From positions 1 through 50,314 of the forward strand of contig JAFTJI010000099.1 of the NCBI GenBank assembly GCA_017456495.1: a stretch of DNA of 50,314 bases. Reading direction: 5' to 3'. The translations under genes were made by a program, and so were the position numbers. The notes under the pieces are model-generated. The model did not search any database. It was not told the DNA's origin and saw only the letters and a list, made by a program, of their open reading frames with translations. This document shows positions 1 to 38,185 of the stretch, in pieces. The first letter of the stretch is position 1; each line of letters starts with the position of its first letter. This stretch comes from Lentisphaeria bacterium. Its GTDB lineage: Bacteria; Verrucomicrobiota; Lentisphaeria; Victivallales; UBA1829.

Positions 1-182
1 GTAATTTCAAAAGTCTTCAAAAATGTCAGAAAATTCTTGTTGCGATCTGTAAAATGGGGCGTTTTCGGTTTATCCTCCATAGCTTCAGCGAAGGAGGATG
101 GCAGCCACGCTCAACCTACCATTTTCAGCTCATCAACAATCTTTTTTCAGACAAATTTTGCCGGACTTTTGAAATTGCCTCT
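1..182. mobile_element. MITE-like non-autonomous element, copy 1 (left end clipped)
   Basis: Terminal inverted repeats GTAATTTCAAAAGTC (1-15) and GACTTTTGAAATTGCCTCT (164-182). Near-identical reverse-complement copy at 50174-50314. Confidence 0.75.
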
Positions 183-330
183 AAAAATATTTATTTTTAC
201 CGGAGCTTGATATTCACAAGGCTCTTTCAAACGAGATAATCGAGCAGTTTACTTGCGTGATTTTCTGCTTTCTACTATTGCCTTCCGCTTTTTTTGCGAT
301 TCTTTTTGATCCTTAATGACAAATATATAC

Positions 331-358
331 TTGCATTTTTCAATAAAGCATGTATATT
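331..358 (+). promoter_or_regulatory. Putative sigma70 promoter of tRNA-Thr
   Basis: TTGCAT-16 nt-TATATT, ending 12 nt upstream of the tRNA. Confidence 0.45.
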
Positions 359-370
359 AATACAATTCGA

Positions 371-446
371 GCCAATTTAGCTCAGTTGGTAGAGCAGCTC
401 ATTCGTAATGAGCAGGTCATCGGTTCAAGTCCGATAATTGGCTCCA
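371..446 (+). tRNA. tRNA-Thr(CGT)
   Basis: 76-nt cloverleaf: acceptor GCCAATT/AATTGGC, anticodon arm GCTCA-TTCGTAA-TGAGC, T-loop GGTTCAAGTCC, encoded CCA. Confidence 0.97.
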
Positions 447-461
447 TTTTTTTGCCTTTTT
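395..461 (+). repeat. att site (left): 3' part of tRNA plus downstream T-tract
   Basis: Identical to 8071-8137. Confidence 0.95.
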
Positions 462-569
462 CAAAACCTAACTTGTTTATAATCAACAATTTACAACTTT
501 TTCGCTTTTGCTTTTCCAAAAATCAAAAAAATGCCTAAAATGCACGCAAAATGCAAAAACGACGCACGG

Positions 570-666
570 ATTACGGAAAAATTACGGAAAATTACGGAAA
601 ATTACGGAAAACAAAAAAGTTAATGATTAAAATTACGGAAAATTACGGAAAAAATTACGGAAAAAA
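570..666 (+). repeat. ATTACGGAAA decamer array, putative integrase arm-type sites (left end)
   Basis: Four tandem copies at ~570-610 and three at ~632-664. The same motif occurs twice at 8004-8026. Confidence 0.8.
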
Positions 667-707
667 CAAAAAAAGCAAGTTTTTTATTGCCTTGCTTTTC
701 CTGATCT

Positions 708-962
708 TTATTTTTTATTGTGATAGTGATATTCTAAAATCTTGATTTTATTATCTATCATTTTTTCAACTTGCTAAGGGGTTAAAATATTAGCTTGCAC
801 TTTTGTTATCTATATTCTGATTGCAGATAAATCTTTCTGCATGTTTTGCAGATTCTATAAAAAGATATTGCCAAAATAGCAAACAATAAAAAGCAATGCC
901 GCGGATATGCCTCCCTTAGTAAGATATTCTATGAACTCTTTTGAATTTTTGATTTTATCCAT
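708..962 (-). CDS. Small membrane protein, holin-like (84 aa, 3 in-frame TAG)
   Basis: RBS AAGGTG, ATG at 962, TAA at 708. One hydrophobic segment GGISAALLFIVCYFGNIFL followed by a coiled coil. Last gene of the late cluster. Confidence 0.65.
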
Positions 963-976
963 TTTGCTACACCTTG

Positions 977-1891
977 TTATTTATTATTGTTAAGCTAGTC
1001 AAGATATTTTTTTAACTCTATAAAACCTTGCTAATTCCATCTGCAATACTTTTTAGTGTGGATCGCTGATTTAAGAGAACAGCAGATTTTTTTATCAATG
1101 TAAACAGTAAAATCAATATCTTTCATAGCTTGTTTTTTTACTGCTGAATATTGATATACTGTTATCGGATATTTGCCTCTGTATTCTCCTATGTTTGCTG
1201 TAAATAGTTTTTTGTTTATCATTTGAGGTTTTAAGTTATCATAATTCAGAATATCAGATATTTTCAGATACTTTCTTGTATCAAGATCAATAGGGGTATT
1301 ATTATATGTAGGAACTATAGATTTTCCATTTACAGCCCCTAAAAAGGCTGTATTCTAATACATATAAATAAAATCATCTGATAAAAGCTAACTATTACAG
1401 AATGTATATATATCCTGACTCATTACTTGAACATCTTCAAACCTAGATAAATCAATATCGGAATATAGTACATAGATCTTGTTATAGTTTGATACATATT
1501 TTTTTATTGATTCAAGAGAAAAAGTAAAATAATCAAGATTAGTTACTTTCTAAAAAACTATATCAACATTTTTTTCAGCACTAACAGATAATAAACCTTG
1601 ATAATCTTTATTTTCTAATTTTTGCCAAAAATTACGGATAAATAATAAATCATCTGCAGTAACAGATATATTTTTATTTTCGAGGGATTTTCTAAAGTTC
1701 CTGAGCTATGATAACAGCTAATAATTATAAGATAATATATGATGTTCAAGATTGCAGATTTCCCCTAAAAAATCAATTCTATGATCTAATTCCGCGTTAT
1801 CTTGATTATGCCCCTGAATAATCTATTTTCCATAGCTTAAACTTAAAGCTAAATGTTTTTTACAGCATGTTAAACAATCCATATTTTTCAT
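977..1891 (-). CDS. Phage hypothetical protein (304 aa, 8 in-frame TAG), possibly with a glycosyltransferase/Stealth-like C-terminal part
   Basis: ATG at 1891 to TAA at 977 with only TAG interruptions. N-terminal CLTCCKKHL; internal LSDDFIYMY motif. Contains the 1031-1222 ORF in frame. Confidence 0.7.
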
Positions 1892-1893
1892 TT

Positions 1894-3432
1894 TTATTCA
1901 CTCCATATATACTCAAGTCCTATAATATTTACTGTATCAGTTTCCATAAAGGTATCTATATTATCCCCGCCGTTTACCTGTCCATCTATAACCCAATTTC
2001 CCTATAACCAACCGTCATTATTACAAGTAGGTTTTGATCTTACATTATATAATGAATAGTGTGTATGTAATGGGAAATAATAAGTTTCCCCGAAATTCAG
2101 GGAAATCTAATACACTGATTCTGTAATATTGTTAATATTATTATTGTTTGGTTTCCAGTTCCACTTATTATTTTTATCAATAATTTTGAACTTTATTCCG
2201 ATTGCTTTTTCAGGTGTTTTTTCAGTTTTTTCAATGTAAAACTAACAAGCTCTGAAAATCCAACTCCCCAAAGTTACAGAACCGTAATAGTTATCATGCT
2301 TTCCGGATTGCCATTCTGCTTTCATACATAAACTATTAGAGTTCTAACAGATATTCTAGCTCCATCCTGTCCCCTTACGCTAATAATATAAATACTGCAT
2401 ATATCCATTATTTATTATATATGTAGGGTAAACCCCATAAAGGGATCTGTCTGCAACATGTTCCCTGATAAAAGCATTGATTTCCGATAATCCTGAATCT
2501 GCATTTAACTGCTACTAACAACTAACTGTAAAATAACCATTTTCATAATGTCCACCAGTTGAAACAAACTTTTCAAGTGTTATTTGATCGTTAGGAGCTG
2601 AATAGTTATAACATTCTACACCGTAATCTATTGGCTGATCTTCATACTTGTACTATTCTGTAATCATTCTTGAACCCTCAGGGCATGTTTCGCAACCTGA
2701 ATTACCGTATGTAGCACAATCAACCCAATAATCAGTATCATTCTCTAAACAATACTTATTATATTCTGTTATGTAACTCCACTTTGTTACGCCTATATTA
2801 GTCCACCAGCATTGCCCCTTGATTCCTAATACTATTTTGTATGATAATGAATACTGATCTAAAAATAAAGGCTTCCAGTAGCCCTATACACAATTACGCC
2901 CCTAACCAGTTAACTACATTCTGCCGTAATACTAATCAATAATCAAAGGATATTTACCGCTTGAATCTTTTTCTATTCCGCATTCTTTATAAAAAATCTA
3001 AGCAAAATCATCATAATTCTAATATGTTCCTGTAAGATTATACACTTGAATCTATACAGCCTCCCAACATGGAAAATACCATTCCTTGCATTCCGTCCAG
3101 TCCTAATTCCACTATTTGCACTATTCCCAATCAGATATATTTTTAACTGTAGCTGTCCCGCATAATCCTTTTTTAGATGATACTTTAATTTGTGTAGGAA
3201 TCGCATATTCCCAAGTTATCTAGCCGTTAGTAACTTGATACACCATAGTTTCAAAATACCAACTGCACTAGTTATAGGGTATCATAGTTTCACAATTCAA
3301 TGATCTATACTTGATTCCGAAAACGCCCCAACCGTTTAATATATCCCCATTACAAGGGCAATTCTAACAAGAGATTATCTAACCTTTATCATTAGAGATT
3401 ATCTAACCGTTTTTATTTTTCCATACTTGCAT
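1894..3432 (-). CDS. Cys/Tyr/Trp-rich phage protein, putative virion/tail-associated (512 aa, 24 in-frame TAG)
   Basis: ATG at 3432 to TAA at 1894, no TAA/TGA in between. Begins MQVWKNKNG*IISNDKG*IISC*NCPC. Confidence 0.75.
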
Positions 3433-3439
3433 AAAAAAA

Positions 3440-5395
3440 TCACTCCTAACAGTTACCTATAGGGATTATTTTCAACTATCCATTCTGAATAGCTAAAACT
3501 CCATCACCTTCAGGAAGATTCAGAGATATTTTTAATTTTCCGTTAACTGATTCAAGTTTCAATGGAGCTGATACTTCTATTTTGTTCTATAAATAATCAG
3601 GCTAATTATCATCTTGATTTATTTTGACTTTATACAATCCCTAAACCCTGAAATCTAAACTTGTATTATTATCAGTTATCTTAACAGTTGAATCTGAACT
3701 TGTAAAATAAGATGGATTGATATTGATAGTCGTTGTTACCCCTATTTCCTATTGATTTTCAGGGTTAGGAACTTCTATAAATCCTATGTTGATACTATTA
3801 TTCTAACTTGATAATTTATCCTGTAAATATGCAGGGAAACAATCATTTTCATTGCTTTTCACTGTATAAGTATCTAAAAAATCAGAATCAACTATTCCCC
3901 ATGATACACCGCCTTTTGCAGTTCCAGTTAGTACATATTTGCTGTTTTCCGCTGTAGCCTATGGAGGGGTTGAAACATTAGGGATTCCGTTAGAATAATC
4001 CCATAACATTACAGCTTGCAAGGCGTTTTCCGATTTTCCCCCATTCCATAAAGATAAATTTCCGTTTTGTTTCTGAAAAACAAAATTGCCTGTATCACTT
4101 GATACTTGCTAATCAGCTTTCCATTTCACTTCTTTACCCTCTAAACCCTAACTGATCTATACATGATTAGCTAAACTTCCTATAACTTTAACTTGCTAAT
4201 CATCCTATGTTTTCCACATTAAACTACCGCTTGTATTCAGCAATTTTTGTTTTTTGCTTTTATCGTAACCGTTTATTTTATGGTACATGAAATAAGGCTT
4301 GATTTTAGTTGTAATTACGCCCTAATTATCAGTTGTTTCCTGTTTTCCCCCTATTAAAGATAAATTAGGGTAATCATCATCCCCCATAGCACTATGAAAC
4401 TAAAATTTATTCCCTAAATAATCGGGCTGATCTTGCTATGTTACTTTTACTTTATATGTATCAGAATTAGCATAAATAAGAGAATCTATATATTGTTCAA
4501 TCCATAAACCGCCCCCATTATCATATCTGATAGAACCTATTCTGTAATTATAGATTTTATTTTCTTTATCGTAAAAAGCAAGATCATTTTCAGTGATTAT
4601 TACAGCAGATTTTTCTTTTTCATTTACTGAACAATAGATAGAACTATCTGCAGATACAGATATATTAGTATCTGCTGTATAGATTATATCATCACCGATT
4701 TTTACAGCTCCCTGCATAACGAAAAATGAAAAATCTGAAAGAATCCAGTTATTTTTTACTGATCCATTATCAATACTTGTTTTTGCGAAAATTGCAAAAG
4801 GAGTTTTCAGCCCTGCATAACTTACTACAAAGTTACCTAATATTTCATTAGTTACTGTATATTGTTTATGTTCATTTTCAGCAGTAACTTTAACTGTTCC
4901 TAACGGGATTGAAAATACCCCTCTTGAACATGGTACATTATTAGTTAGTGAATCAGATTTTACAAAGTAAATATAAGGAGTATAAACAGGGTTTAATGAA
5001 TCCCCATTAAACAAAGGATTATATACCATTAACAATATAACATGATATTCCCCCTAATCAGAAAGTTTATCAAGAGATATTTTTTGATCTTGAATATAAC
5101 ATCTGTTTTGTGCCTAATCGTTTATTTGTATTCTTCCGTTTTGAACAGATAAAAAATCAGAATCATTCTCTGTAATAACAGATAACTTAAAAGGATATTT
5201 GATTTTTTGACTGCCGTTTTTTCCTGTTCCATTGTTAATACATGATATAGTGATTCCGCTTGTATTCTGATTGATCTTTATAGATTGATTATCACCGCTT
5301 AAACGCTGAGTTTTCAAATAATCTATAATCTGATTGATTGTTTTTACAGCGGAATCCTTAAAGGGCTGTCCTGATTGTAATTTAGTAGGTATCAT
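3440..5395 (-). CDS. Putative tail fibre/tail protein (651 aa, 18 in-frame TAG)
   Basis: Joins ORFs 5114-5395 and 4436-5035 in one frame and continues to TGA at 3440. Three internal repeats YxVK...PxYL. Confidence 0.75.
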
Positions 5396-5401
5396 ATATT
5401 A

Positions 5402-6166
5402 TCATTCTCCATATAAATCTTTATCCCAACCGTTAGAGTCACCGCTTTTTGTATAAACATTTTGTACTATCCAATGTTTTCCATCGTAACTAATAGAACT
5501 CTAATCATGTTTCCAGTTTCCAACATTCAAACCGAAAGTATTATCAGGTGATTTTATTGTATTGATACTTTTTTCTATTGCATTCCCTGCTGAATTAGCT
5601 GTGTTATATTTTGCTGTTTCAGTAACTACAAAAACAGCAAAATCATAATATTCTACACCTTGTTTTGTAGGTTTTTGCAATATTCCCCAATATTCCCCAT
5701 TTTCAGCCTGCTAAAGGGGTAATTCCCCTATTGATTTAATCCATGCGTATTTCCCCCTATCAGATACAGGAATAATTGTATCTTTAGCAGTAGTAGCCCA
5801 TGCAGGGAGTGTTACTTTCCCTAAACCTATTAAATAATGATTCCACATAGTCAAATAGTTAGGTAAACCCTATAAAGGTAACTGTATATTCCTAACTGAT
5901 AATGTAGCAGATTTTTTTCCGGTTACTGTATCTGTTCCAACATCATACTAATAACTATAAACTAAATCAACCTGCCATATATTAGCGTCCTTTTGAGATT
6001 TACTAATACTTGTTAAATATCCTTTATACTCTTGATAATAGTTTCCAATAACAAGAGAATTGATTTTAGAATCAATCTATGTTTCATTTCCGTATAAAGT
6101 TACATTGCAAACATTTTCTGTTTGATTTTTTGAAATATTGATACCTTGAAAAGCTGTATTTATCAT
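5402..6166 (-). CDS. Putative tail protein downstream of tape measure (254 aa, 5 in-frame TAG)
   Basis: ATG overlaps the upstream TGA (ATGA at 6163-6166). Ends GWDKDLYGE-TGA, 6 nt before the next start. Confidence 0.75.
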
Positions 6167-7074
6167 ATCAACCCCGCTCCTACAATAATAGTTTTCATTT
6201 GAGATAGAATATTAGCTGTTTTAGCTGAATAATCTTTAATTTGAGTGTTTATTTTTGCTATATCCGTAAATACACCCCCACTTGCAAAACCGCCTCTAGC
6301 CGTTAAAGAATTAGTTTTTTCAGTATAATCTATTTTCAGCTGTGGCATATTATCAAGTTTGTTTTGCAGATTGTATAAAGTTTCAATTTTTTTCCTTTGC
6401 TCATCATTCAAAGTTACACCATATTGATTTTCATACTGAGCAATTTTCTTTTCTATATCTGCTGTTTTCCCTAATCCTTGTTTATGGTATATTTGCCATA
6501 AAATTTCCTGAGCTTCATTAGTGAATGCTGATTGTATCTGTACCCCTGCAAGTTCTTTCTTTTTTTGCATGATAATACTTATCTAACCCTAATCTATATT
6601 CAGCCCTTGTTTTTTAAGATCGTTAATGATTCTCAATCTTTCTATCTACTCTTTGCTTGCAGTCGCTTGTAATCTTGCAAGCTCTAACTAATTATCTAAA
6701 TCTTGCTTAATGTTTTTGTATTCTTTTTTACTCTGTAAATCCTTTAAGATACCTTTTTTAGCTAAAAGATTTTTAATCTAACTCTAATCTATATTCAACC
6801 CTTGTTTTTTAAGATCGAAAACTATTTTCTGATATTCAGCCTAATCTATTTTATCTTGTAAAAGTAACTGTTCTATAGTGATCTGATTCTATAAAGTATT
6901 ATTCTGATCTTGATAATATTTTTCTGATCTTTTTTTCAGCTTATCTATTTTCTGCTGAATTTTCAACTGTTCAAACTGAGCCTGAGCAATATTATACTAC
7001 ATTCTAACATTCAAAAACGCCCTAAACATATTCAAGCCTGTATTTTTCTTTTGTATCTTTTTGTTTTTGCTTTT
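6163..7074 (-). pseudogene. C-terminal fragment of tape-measure-like protein (9 in-frame TAG), 5' part lost
   Basis: Helical K/Q/E-rich sequence with a 65-aa repeat (DLKKQGLNID*x*I twice) and C-terminal SLTARGGFASGG motif. No convincing start. Confidence 0.65.
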
Positions 7075-7092
7075 TTAGAATCGTATCTTGTT

Positions 7093-7935
7093 TCAGTTAT
7101 ATAACCATTCATAATCAAGTATCGGCAATATAACATCATTGCCGGTTTTGTTTTGTTTCAGTTTTATCATTTTTGAATTAAAATCTATTTCGTTCCATTC
7201 AAGATTACAAAGATCACCTAATCTAAGCCCTGTATAGAATGCTAAACGGAATAAAGGAATAATTAAGCCACTTGTATCTTTATCTTTGCTACTAAGAATT
7301 AACTTTATTTCCTCTTCCGTGAAAATATCTCTTGTATTTTTTTCATGTTTAACTTTATCAACTGTAGTAAATGGGTTAATGGTGAAACTGCTATTCCTTA
7401 AAACAGAATCAAAAATCACTGAACAAAACATAATGATTCTATTAACAGAATGGGACGAAAGATTAGAGATAGTTTGTTTTTGTTTTATAATTTTGCCGTT
7501 CCTGATATATTCTGATTGATTATTATATCTTCCGTGTTCCTTGATATAATCAACATAACCGATAATATGATCTTCCGTTATCTCTGAGATATATTTAACT
7601 TTATCATTCTCTAAAAATGAACAAAAATCGAACCAATAAGCAAGATACTGTTTTTTTGTTTTCTCTGCAATGTTTTTTCTATTGCCTTTATTCAAGGCAA
7701 TATTTACCGCTGTCCTAATCTCTATATTCTCCGATCCTTTAATTTCGGTGATTCTGTTCCGGTGATACTCAATCGGATTAACAGCTTCATTTTCGTTTTT
7801 TAATTCTTCTTTTCTTTTTTGCTCAAACGCCTTTGCCTCTCTTTCTGTGGTACATCCTTCACATGTTCCGTAAAATCTTTTGCGATTAACCATAAATTCA
7901 TAATAGAATACATTTTTTTTCTTTTTGATTGCCAT
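7093..7935 (-). pseudogene. Tyrosine integrase, C-terminally truncated
   Basis: Arm-binding-like N-terminus, YTGLRLGDLCNLEW (catalytic Arg box) and KQNKT. Stops before the HxxR and Tyr boxes. RBS AAGGAGG. Confidence 0.85.
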
Positions 7936-7969
7936 TTTTTAGCCTCCTTAAAGTGTTGATTTCAGGTAA

Positions 7970-7998
7970 AATATACACCCTCAGAATGCAAAATGCAA
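7970..7998 (-). promoter_or_regulatory. Putative integrase promoter
   Basis: Minus strand TTGCAT-17 nt-TATATT upstream of the RBS. Confidence 0.55.
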
Positions 7999-8003
7999 AC
8001 AAA

Positions 8004-8026
8004 AATTACGGAAAAATTACGGAAAA
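8004..8026 (+). repeat. ATTACGGAAA x2, arm-type sites (right end)
   Basis: Same motif as 570-666. Confidence 0.75.
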
Positions 8027-8070
8027 TCTTTCATTTTTTAAGCGTTTTGAGTTCAAAATAGCCGTTTTTT

Positions 8071-8137
8071 CAGCTCATTCGTAATGAGCAGGTCATCGGT
8101 TCAAGTCCGATAATTGGCTCCATTTTTTTGCCTTTTT
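8071..8137 (+). repeat. att site (right): duplicated tRNA-Thr 3' fragment
   Basis: Identical to 395-461; lacks the 5' acceptor strand and D arm. Confidence 0.95.
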
Positions 8138-8337: not shown

Positions 8338-9090
8338 ATGGACAAAACGCAGAAAAAACATTTTACATTGATTGAACTGCTCGTGGTGATCGCCATCATC
8401 GCGATTCTGGCAGGTATGCTGCTGCCGGCTTTGAACAATGCAAGAGAACAGGGACGTGCAAAGGGTTGTTTGAACAATATCAAACAGACCGGAGCGGTTT
8501 GTCTGTTATATGCAAACGATTACGATGATGTTCTTCCCTTCAAGGGGCATACAGATTCCAAGACGGGGATCAATTACGGCGCATATTTTTCAAGCGGTTA
8601 CCATTGGCAGGATGCAATGTATAAGGCATATAATGGAAGTGTAAACAAAAATCTCTCCATGTGTCCGGCAACACTCACAAAATTTAAACCTACAGTCAAT
8701 ACAACCTATGGAATGAATAATTATCTGGCTGCCGGGACAATGATACATAGCAGTTATCATGCAAAATTCAATGTTCCGATCCGGAAAGTTTCTCAGTTGA
8801 GAGCAGCCTCTAAAAGTGGACTGATGGTCGAAAACAGAGGTCACGGCGGTTGGGGCGGTAATGAATCAGAAACCGCAACAGATGCAACCCGCACCCACTT
8901 TATCCATAAAGAACGGGCTAATGCTGTTTTTATCGATGGCCATGCAGAATCCAGAACATACTCCGGCATCCCTTCCTATGAATCGACCCTTTACACTGCA
9001 ATGAAAAAAGGGCAGTCTGAACGGCTCAATACTTACTTTCATATAGGCGAAGTTTTCAGTCATACAGCCACAGCTTACCCCGGATTGTAA
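8338..9090 (+). CDS. Prepilin-type N-methylation protein, DUF1559/H-X9-DG type
   Basis: [24 protein letters not shown]; C-terminal [13 protein letters not shown]. Confidence 0.9.
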
Positions 9091-37829: not shown

Positions 37830-38185
37830 TGGTGGAGACGGCGGGAGTCGAACCCGCGTCCTGTGACAGCTTTCCGATGGCATCAACATGCTTTCTCCAT
37901 CTTTATCGTTTTTTCGTCTCGCGGCTGAGCCAATGGATAGGCGGCTTTGCGACTATACTGTCTGAATCTCACTGATTTAACAACAGTCCGATCAAATCAG
38001 CCAGGACTCTGACGACGTCTCAACTTCCCTTAGAGTCCGTCAGGGAGGAGACGTCACTGCAACTTAGGCAGCGAGAGCGTACTCTTCGTTCGCTTGTATT
38101 TTTTGACAGAAGTTTAACGAGGCCAACTGTCATCCTCGGCATGCAGCTGTCGGTCTACTCGTCCAGTCGAAACCATGACGTCCCC
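37830..38185 (-). ncRNA. ssrA: tmRNA
   Basis: 5' GGGGACG pairs with CGTCTCC-ACCA; T-loop GGTTCGACTCCC; tag ORF ANEEYALAA-TAA. Confidence 0.96.

Follow-up and report, generated by a model that had tools for sequence, protein, structure and literature searches.

Probable reassignment of TAG to glutamate in the late genes of a tailed phage integrated into a tRNA-Thr gene

Introduction

Where the genetic code of a phage is unlike that of its host, only two reassignments have been observed according to the main survey, namely TAG to glutamine (Gln) and TGA to tryptophan (TGA as glycine is described for code-25 hosts), and the glutaminyl- and tryptophanyl-tRNA synthetases (GlnRS and TrpRS) were deemed easy to hijack (10.1101/2021.08.26.457843). 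Papers on code-15 phages state that TAG aligns there with Gln, and the survey adds that suppressor tRNAs occur in only 35–40% of recoded phages and that the integrases of the Garnet and Topaz phages avoid the recoded codon. Every known bacterial code change reassigns UGA according to the Codetta paper, and glutamate (Glu) as the meaning of UAG is described, in PMC10553269, for an oligohymenophorean ciliate code in which UAA and UAG differ in meaning. The subject here is a stretch of DNA from a Lentisphaeria bacterium, called the window, which is the entire 50,314-base contig JAFTJI010000099.1 of a 3.43-Mb, 47% GC, 91%-complete assembly (GCA_017456495.1), and within it the region 462–8137, which is the remnant of a temperate tailed phage integrated into a tRNA-Thr gene of a standard-code gut bacterium. 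Comparison of its TAG-containing late genes with standard-code homologues suggests, with a probability that we put at about 0.8, that the phage lineage reassigned the amber codon and that TAG in these genes means Glu, not Gln.

The locus resembles the code-15 gut phages (crAss-like, Lak, Garnet and Phass-1) in its standard-code host, its gut habitat and its AT-richness relative to the host, and also in having read-through of TAG only, enriched in the late genes and avoided in the integrase, as is described in those phages for late or structural genes. It differs from them in that the TAG sites match Glu and do not align with Gln in standard-code homologues; and while Phass-1 carries an annotated tRNA-Sup-CTA, no suppressor tRNA was seen here. 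With the ciliate codes it shares UAG as Glu, but those belong to eukaryotic nuclear genomes, whereas here the code of a virus would differ from that of its host. In the peritrich code (NCBI table 30) TAA and TAG both specify Glu; at the present locus Glu at TAG is reached by comparative inference, while TAA never stands in frame as a sense codon and ends half of the six reading frames. A preliminary description of this DNA, made from its letters alone, had held that TAG as Glu would be new for a phage, and literature searches agree in that they returned no TAG-to-Glu code in a phage or a bacterium (their scope excluded supplementary tables, in which the Borges study might list assignments by clade) and UAG as Glu in ciliates only. 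It is likely that UAG means Glu in a clade of temperate, tailed phages that live in Lentisphaeria/Victivallales of the gut, which would be the first such case in a virus or a prokaryotic system.

TAG-Open Reading Frames

Six contiguous open reading frames (ORFs) of 84–651 amino acids (aa) lie on the minus strand between positions 708 and 7035 and are open only when TAG is read (Table 1). Their 2,095 codons hold 67 in-frame TAG, 0 TAA and 0 TGA, which over six contiguous frames excludes chance or random decay. Three of the frames end in TAA and three in TGA, and under translation table 11 positions 1–7035 yield just two ORFs of at least 100 aa. The stretch lies within the first 8 kb of the window, where GC content is about 30% against the 47% of the assembly, and it is the sole TAG-open stretch of the 3.43 Mb. 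The preliminary description had seen the feature at 774–3405; the TAG-open stretch is real, and its extent proved larger.

The recoded codon is confined to the late genes. In the six ORFs TAG makes up 67 of the 159 TAG, GAA and GAG codons, as against 0 of 26 in the adjoining integrase fragment (Fisher p = 3e-6), which has 0 TAG and writes all 26 of its Glu codons as GAA or GAG. The short strings that the preliminary description had quoted are all present under read-through of TAG (X): DWEXCKXWNXDWTECKEWY forms residues 101–119 of the 512-aa ORF (about 3076–3132), which also contains SCXNCPC; LTPXQVEKM and IRIXITKV lie in the 84-aa ORF, DFIYMYXN in the 304-aa ORF and LPLXGLPNY in the 254-aa ORF; the three YKVK/YTVK repeats are in the 651-aa ORF, and LDNXL and LXNQI in the tape-measure fragment.

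Homologues and Their Genetic Code

Homologues were obtained by protein-library searches with four of the ORFs and then as DNA loci retrieved with an alignment of the 254-aa tail protein (A3), which gave 71 loci, 2 of them from IMG/VR, 56 from metagenomes and 13 from GTDB. Sorting database homologues by their Gln (Q) content is circular and was replaced by DNA-based classing together with a FYMINK/GARP proxy. The standard-code set, in which Q and Glu (E) content played no part, consists of 66 loci with a GC content of at least 0.46 and a marker gene whose only TAG, if it has one, falls at its end or beyond, and it counts five stretches from a search of relatives' genomes. Eleven loci were set aside from it as TAG-open, ambiguous or low in GC. 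Among these, L024 (9.8 kb, 32% GC), L025/L026 and L027 are TAG-recoded by their DNA and show the same TAG-only pattern as the window; L024, L026 and L027 were used in the tests, and L025 was dropped as a near-duplicate of L026. The ambiguous low-GC loci were excluded from both sets (L043, with few TAG, and L044, L055, L062 and L072, with possible in-frame TGA), as was L071, for low GC alone, its match being short with 0 in-frame TAG or TGA.

A public protein library contains the 651-aa fibre protein of the window itself (as P0007) with Q at all 18 TAG positions. Since the library thus holds gene calls in which TAG was forced to Q, a Q in such homologues is untrustworthy. The homologues of the 512-aa ORF are bimodal, one group having 5–8% Q with mostly lower E (3.3–7.9%) and the other 2–3% Q with higher E (6.5–11%). 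Excess Q and a low E content are likewise seen in many close homologues.

The Residue Read at TAG

For each recoded ORF with at least three standard-code homologues, a hidden Markov model (HMM) was built from those homologues alone, and hmmsearch bit scores were taken with TAG translated as each residue. Fifteen ORFs with 210 TAG could be scored in this way, three from the window, five each from L024 and L026 and two from L027. Summed over all 210, Glu scored best, with Asp 45.5, Ser 59.4, His 60.3, Lys 61.0 and Gln 63.4 bits behind. The same profiles served as their own control, for among sense codons with n of at least 10 the true residue came first in 55 of 57 cases: CAA was called Gln by 19.8 bits over Glu and CAG by 8.8, GAA was called Glu by 77.6 bits over Gln, and GAG was also called Glu. 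Omission of the tape-measure-like ORFs left 111 TAG, for which Glu was still best and Gln 30.8 bits behind, with 53 of 54 controls correct. The window alone, with 32 testable TAG, again gave Glu (Asp −10.0, Lys −14.0 and Gln −17.7 bits) with weaker controls (28 of 34), and L026 alone gave Glu with controls at 43 of 43; L027 alone is weak and gave Gly, with Glu 2.2 bits behind. ORF by ORF, Glu ranked first in 12 of the 15, and the difference between Glu and Gln was above zero in 13, zero in one and −0.2 bits in one.

Individual sites agree with the sums. The mean log2 ratio of E to Q emission at match columns was +1.13 [0.92, 1.34] for TAG (n = 102), +1.06 [0.89, 1.22] for GAA and GAG (n = 173) and +0.33 [0.17, 0.51] for CAA and CAG (n = 190), so that by Mann-Whitney test TAG sites differ from those of Gln codons (p = 1e-10) and not from those of Glu codons (p = 0.72). 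Site by site, the ratios E/K and E/D at TAG likewise equalled those of Glu codons and were unlike those of Lys and Asp codons. At an emission of at least 0.5, conserved columns take in 3 TAG sites only.

Direct alignment leads to the same residue. Against L022, the closest standard-code relative (31–63% identity), 55 TAG codons face E 23 times, D 8, K 7, V 4, N 3, T 3, L 2, others 5 and Q 0 times. In the same alignments E lies opposite 39 of the 77 Glu codons (51%) and Q opposite 17 of the 48 Gln codons (35%), and about 19 Q would be expected among the 55 if TAG meant Gln. Within the recoded clade, symmetrised counts over well-aligned blocks place TAG opposite E in 27% of cases, opposite another TAG in 25% and opposite Q in 7%, while TAG stands opposite Glu codons at 18% and opposite Gln codons at 5%. 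Conservation of E plus TAG amounts to 52–55%, compared with self-conservation of 52% for Lys, 54% for Asp and 47% for Gln.

Single columns can also be read in the window's own proteins. At residue 99 of the 254-aa tail protein, TAG occupies a 'PL[E]' position where 24 of 31 database homologues have E and 7 have Q; at residue 23 of the 304-aa ORF, 16 of 18 homologues have E and the other 2 have Q, and overall that ORF scores best with Glu against its database homologues, Gln being 1.7 bits behind. In the WEXCKXWNXDW/TECKEW repeat of the 512-aa ORF, E fills 14 of 22 occupied cells at residue 107 and 11 of 22 at residue 110. Scored against database homologues of unverified code (low-Q or GARP-rich sets), the 512-aa ORF always had Glu first, with Gln 2.2–9.1 bits behind, a distance that shrinks to 0.3–2.5 bits in sets that include probable forced-Q sequences. 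The preliminary description had proposed that TAG may encode Glu and left the assignment undecided; the tally of homologue columns that it suggested, made here with DNA-verified standard-code homologues, supports the proposal, and the columns now favour Glu.

Composition and Codon Usage

GAA and GAG together fall below the mean Glu content of the standard-code homologues in all 15 recoded ORFs. The deficit largely or wholly disappears once TAG is counted as well, for example 2.2 + 6.5 against 8.8 and 4.1 + 1.9 against 6.2, with an overshoot in a few ORFs, and 10 of the 15 have no less Gln than the homologues have on average. In the recoded contigs TAG takes about 28–46% of Glu positions, measured as TAG/(TAG + GAA + GAG). 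The 9,803 nucleotides (nt) of L024 contain 150 TAG in 3,116 codons beside 161 GAA and 15 GAG, with 56 TAG in the tape-measure gene, so that TAG would be nearly the main Glu codon there, rivalling GAA in the late genes. The share of GAG among GAA and GAG is 8.5% in L024 and 14% in the window, and that of CAG among CAA and CAG is 27% and 38%. The recoded ORFs of the code-15 phage Phass-1 (OQ749652) have CAG at 10–18% of CAA and CAG, and relative to that phage it is GAG and not CAG that runs low as a sister codon of TAG in L024 and in the window.

Weighing the Alternatives

Several observations weigh against reading TAG as Glu. The decoding is deduced from five concordant comparative tests with internal controls and not from proteomics, and the calibration came from CAA and CAG within the same ORFs and not from a validated code-15 phage; the 1,885-aa recoded ORF of Phass-1 had no relative in the collection searched. 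Discrimination comes only from log-odds scores and relative comparisons, since raw sums of emissions prefer E for CAA and CAG too. Three of the 15 ORFs do not place Glu first, these being the L024 tape measure (Pro), a fragment from L027 (Gly) and an ORF with a single TAG (tied). The 512-aa ORF has just two distant DNA-verified homologues, against which the test is powerless (K 0, Q −0.4, E −1.3 bits; controls 15 of 32), and its Glu call comes from the database sets, whose genetic code is unverified. Some of its TAG fall in columns conserved for other residues, such as K in 25 of 28 at residue 10 and Y in 17 of 30 at residue 173, and no single residue explains the TAG codons in its K-, Y- and D-conserved columns. 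No tRNA with the anticodon CUA was found among the 41 tRNAs of the 91%-complete host assembly, in the 71 related loci, or by Rfam on the recoded contigs, which are fragments of 1.3–9.8 kb. The host also has GlnRS, and nothing in it accounts for insertion of Glu over Gln.

Ordinary code 15, by which a Gln-type amber suppressor would read TAG codons that arose from GAG wherever the change from Glu to Gln was tolerated, had been offered in the preliminary description as the conservative alternative, and we regard it as decidedly improbable. It is the sole amber reassignment reported for phages of standard-code hosts in the survey (10.1101/2021.08.26.457843) and in related abstracts, the host possesses the synthetase it calls for, and some TAG do stand opposite Q, both in database homologues (residue 179 of the 304-aa ORF has Q in 11 of 18 and E in 7) and in the internal tail repeats that had been cited as counter-evidence to Glu; those pairs exist, but they are anecdotal and are partly explained by public forced-Q translations such as P0007. 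The small 0.3–2.5-bit distance for the 512-aa ORF likewise comes from sets with probable forced-Q homologues. Over the 210 TAG, however, Gln is 63.4 bits worse than Glu under profiles that identify CAA and CAG correctly, the sites of TAG are distinct from those of Gln codons (p = 1e-10), and Q is met 0 times in 55 in L022 where true Gln codons meet it in 35%. At sense codons the exchange of E for Q is rare (3 of 77 against L022), so a mass replacement of Glu by Gln would oppose the selection acting in the same proteins. It would, moreover, mean a shortage of Glu and an excess of Gln in most ORFs, and CAG, with a share of 38% for the window and 27% for L024, is undepleted by the measure of the Phass-1 recoded ORFs (10–18%).

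That TAG stands for another residue such as Asp or Lys, or for a mixture inserted by near-cognate decoding or several suppressor tRNAs, with Glu-like sites being merely the most tolerant, is unlikely as well. D and K are rated next-best after E, columns dominated by K, Y, D or T hold several TAG of the 512-aa ORF, and no tRNA is known for the clade. Against this reading, the summed scores of D and K trail that of E by 45.5 and 61.0 bits, TAG has the E/K and E/D ratios of Glu codons and not those of Lys and Asp codons, and the 52% conservation of TAG-or-E matches the self-conservation of Lys (52%), Asp (54%) and Gln (47%) codons. Scarcely credible, finally, is the idea of a dead prophage whose TAG codons arose by nonsense mutation and are read by nothing. 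The element is indeed a deletion remnant with a truncated integrase in a genome without a suppressor tRNA among the 41 scanned, and the copy may be silent in this host, a matter that bears on the copy and not on the code of the lineage. Decay would not leave 67 TAG, 0 TAA and 0 TGA in 2,095 in-frame codons, and the TAG-only pattern recurs in the independent metagenomic relatives L024, L025/L026 and L027. Contigs from four gut metagenome runs, aligned to 462–8137, proved to be near-identical copies, and among the 37 variant codons listed 26 are synonymous by recount, as for coding sequence under selection, and 0 touch a TAG, with a further 33 differences outside that list; this comparison is uninformative on which residue TAG encodes.

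Decoding and the Host

The host is a standard-code bacterium, as its ORFs are unaffected by the reading of TAG and release factor 1 is present (451 bits). TAG ends 79 of 2,149 host ORFs of at least 300 codons. As a trinucleotide, TAG is 3 times rarer in the host than TAA and 7 times rarer than TGA. A host that nearly avoids TAG would make amber suppression cheap for a phage. For Glu decoding, intact relatives would carry a tRNA with a CUA anticodon that is charged with Glu, and a single anticodon change in tRNA-Glu, from CUC to CUA, would yield such a tRNA; the recoding may then delay the translation of late genes, as has been proposed for code-15 phages. As the assembly has no such tRNA, the genes of the remnant are probably not translated in full in this host.

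Two further ideas were rejected. A host lacking GlnRS, in which a Gln-type suppressor would stay charged with Glu, is ruled out by a GlnRS match of 756 bits, and GatB and glutamyl-tRNA synthetase (GluRS) are also present. An Rfam tRNA match at 8061–8119 (32.4 bits) is no suppressor, for its anticodon loop reads CGU, it lacks a D arm and it is the fragment of tRNA-Thr left at the right end of the element.

The Integrated Element

The 3' half of the tRNA-Thr(CGU) gene forms part of the left attachment (att) repeat, and this 3' end is duplicated in exact 67-nt direct repeats whose spacing of 7,676 nt gives the bounds of the integrated element. As in other temperate phages that integrate into tRNA genes, the duplication flanks the element and a tyrosine integrase gene adjoins one of its ends, here the right one. 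A cluster of AAAATTACGG repeats lies just inside the left end and a similar pair inside the right end, at 8002–8025; these clusters may be arm-type binding sites of the integrase.

Table 1. Features of the prophage remnant and its surroundings in the window
Feature	Positions	Strand	Basis
Host tRNA-Thr (anticodon CGU), integration target	371–446	+	ARAGORN; Rfam RF00005, 72 bits
Left copy of exact 67-nt direct repeat (attL core)	395–461	.	Repeat search, 100% identity; alignment
AAAATTACGG repeat cluster just inside left end	578–674	.	Repeat search
84-aa ORF, 3 TAG, one hydrophobic stretch	708–962	-	TAG read-through translation
304-aa ORF, 8 TAG	977–1891	-	18 database homologues
Cys-rich 512-aa ORF, 24 TAG, with WEXCKXWNXDWTECKEW repeat (X = TAG)	1894–3432	-	37 homologues in representative protein library
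Tail-fibre-like 651-aa ORF, 18 TAG	3440–5395	-	First ~260 aa match L022:10787–12517
Conserved tail-module protein, 254 aa, 5 TAG	5402–6166	-	Alignment A3; best-conserved marker of the phage group
Tape-measure protein, C-terminal fragment, 290 aa, 9 TAG	6163–7035	-	Homologue alignment; N-terminal part deleted
Tyrosine integrase, N-terminal fragment, 280 aa	7093–7935	-	Pfam PF00589, profile positions 3–73 of 172 only
Right copy of 67-nt repeat (attR), tRNA-Thr 3' fragment	8071–8137	.	Repeat search; alignment
First host gene past attR	8338–9090	+	Product with prepilin-type N-terminal motif, judged by eye
tmRNA gene of host	37830–38185	-	Rfam RF00023, 152 bits

Unlike such phages, the element measures only 7.7 kb and has neither an intact tyrosine recombinase nor a full gene set, the integrase being without its catalytic C-terminal part, the tape measure without its N-terminal part, and the genes for head, packaging, replication and any tRNA being gone. 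In homologue ORFs of 480 and 546 aa, the integrase fragment aligns to aa 45–311 and aa 65–319, respectively, and its homologues extend some 130–230 aa further. The tape-measure fragment aligns to residues ~290–600 of stop-to-stop frames of 544–614 aa and matches only the C-terminal 250 residues of homologues of 724–906 aa. An internal deletion would have brought what is left of the integrase up against the 3' remainder of the tape-measure gene and would have spared the distal tail module and one small membrane protein. The neighbouring genes are those of a tail module by homology with the standard-code IMG/VR contig L022, whose phage has a tail fibre and a capsid protein fused to a protease, and the C-terminal part of L022:10787–12517 matches PHROG tail-fibre families. 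The small protein is the 84-aa ORF, which has no Pfam match and weak PHROG matches only, and which may be a holin-like membrane protein.

The junction of integrase and tape measure is covered (6872–7648) by one X1 contig, which may come from the source sample. Contigs from other runs depart from 462–8137 at several inner points (e.g., 1913, 5510 and 6168), and one X1 contig links 4890 to 7045 with 33 other letters between; intact or differently arranged relatives may be present in those samples. That the rest of the prophage or a suppressor tRNA lies elsewhere in the genome was also rejected, since TAG-open ORFs are confined to contig C80, and C64 uses the standard code even where its GC is low.

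Implications

If the assignment is true, a bacterial or phage-supplied GluRS can be made to charge a tRNA with a CUA anticodon. A TAG-to-Glu lineage would break the rule that phages turn TAG into Gln and TGA into Trp, and would add a natural code that is unlisted for prokaryotes or viruses. Public pipelines probably mistranslate this clade, as gene callers using code 15 put Q at every TAG, so that in these phages 2–6% of residues would be changed and negative charges lost. Such forced-Q translations would degrade homology searches, structure predictions and the proteins expressed from these sequences. The tRNA, if found, would offer code engineering a naturally occurring suppressor that places Glu at amber codons.

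Distribution of Relatives

The GTDB contigs retrieved belong mostly to Lentisphaeria, Victivallis or Victivallales metagenome-assembled genomes, which suggests Lentisphaeria/Victivallales as the host group of the relatives. Searches of GenBank phages (INPHARED) by tblastn with the 512-aa ORF (P0001) and with the query P0002 gave no match, and IMG/VR scans with P0002, alignment A1 and the 512-aa ORF gave no confirmed relative, while those with A3 and an L024 capsid query gave standard-code contigs only (L022/L093 and L023). A search with P0002 in 61 relatives' genomes yielded short N-terminal matches only, and a search with alignment A2 in 401 genomes of the phylum yielded three full-length standard-code homologues at about 24% identity. 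Three of the low-GC contigs left out of both sets contain homologues of the 254-aa tail protein that are open only if TGA is read, namely L055:1592–2392, L062:48–920 and L072:305–1012 with 3, 9 and 2 in-frame TGA, and these may reflect either TGA recoding or frameshifts.

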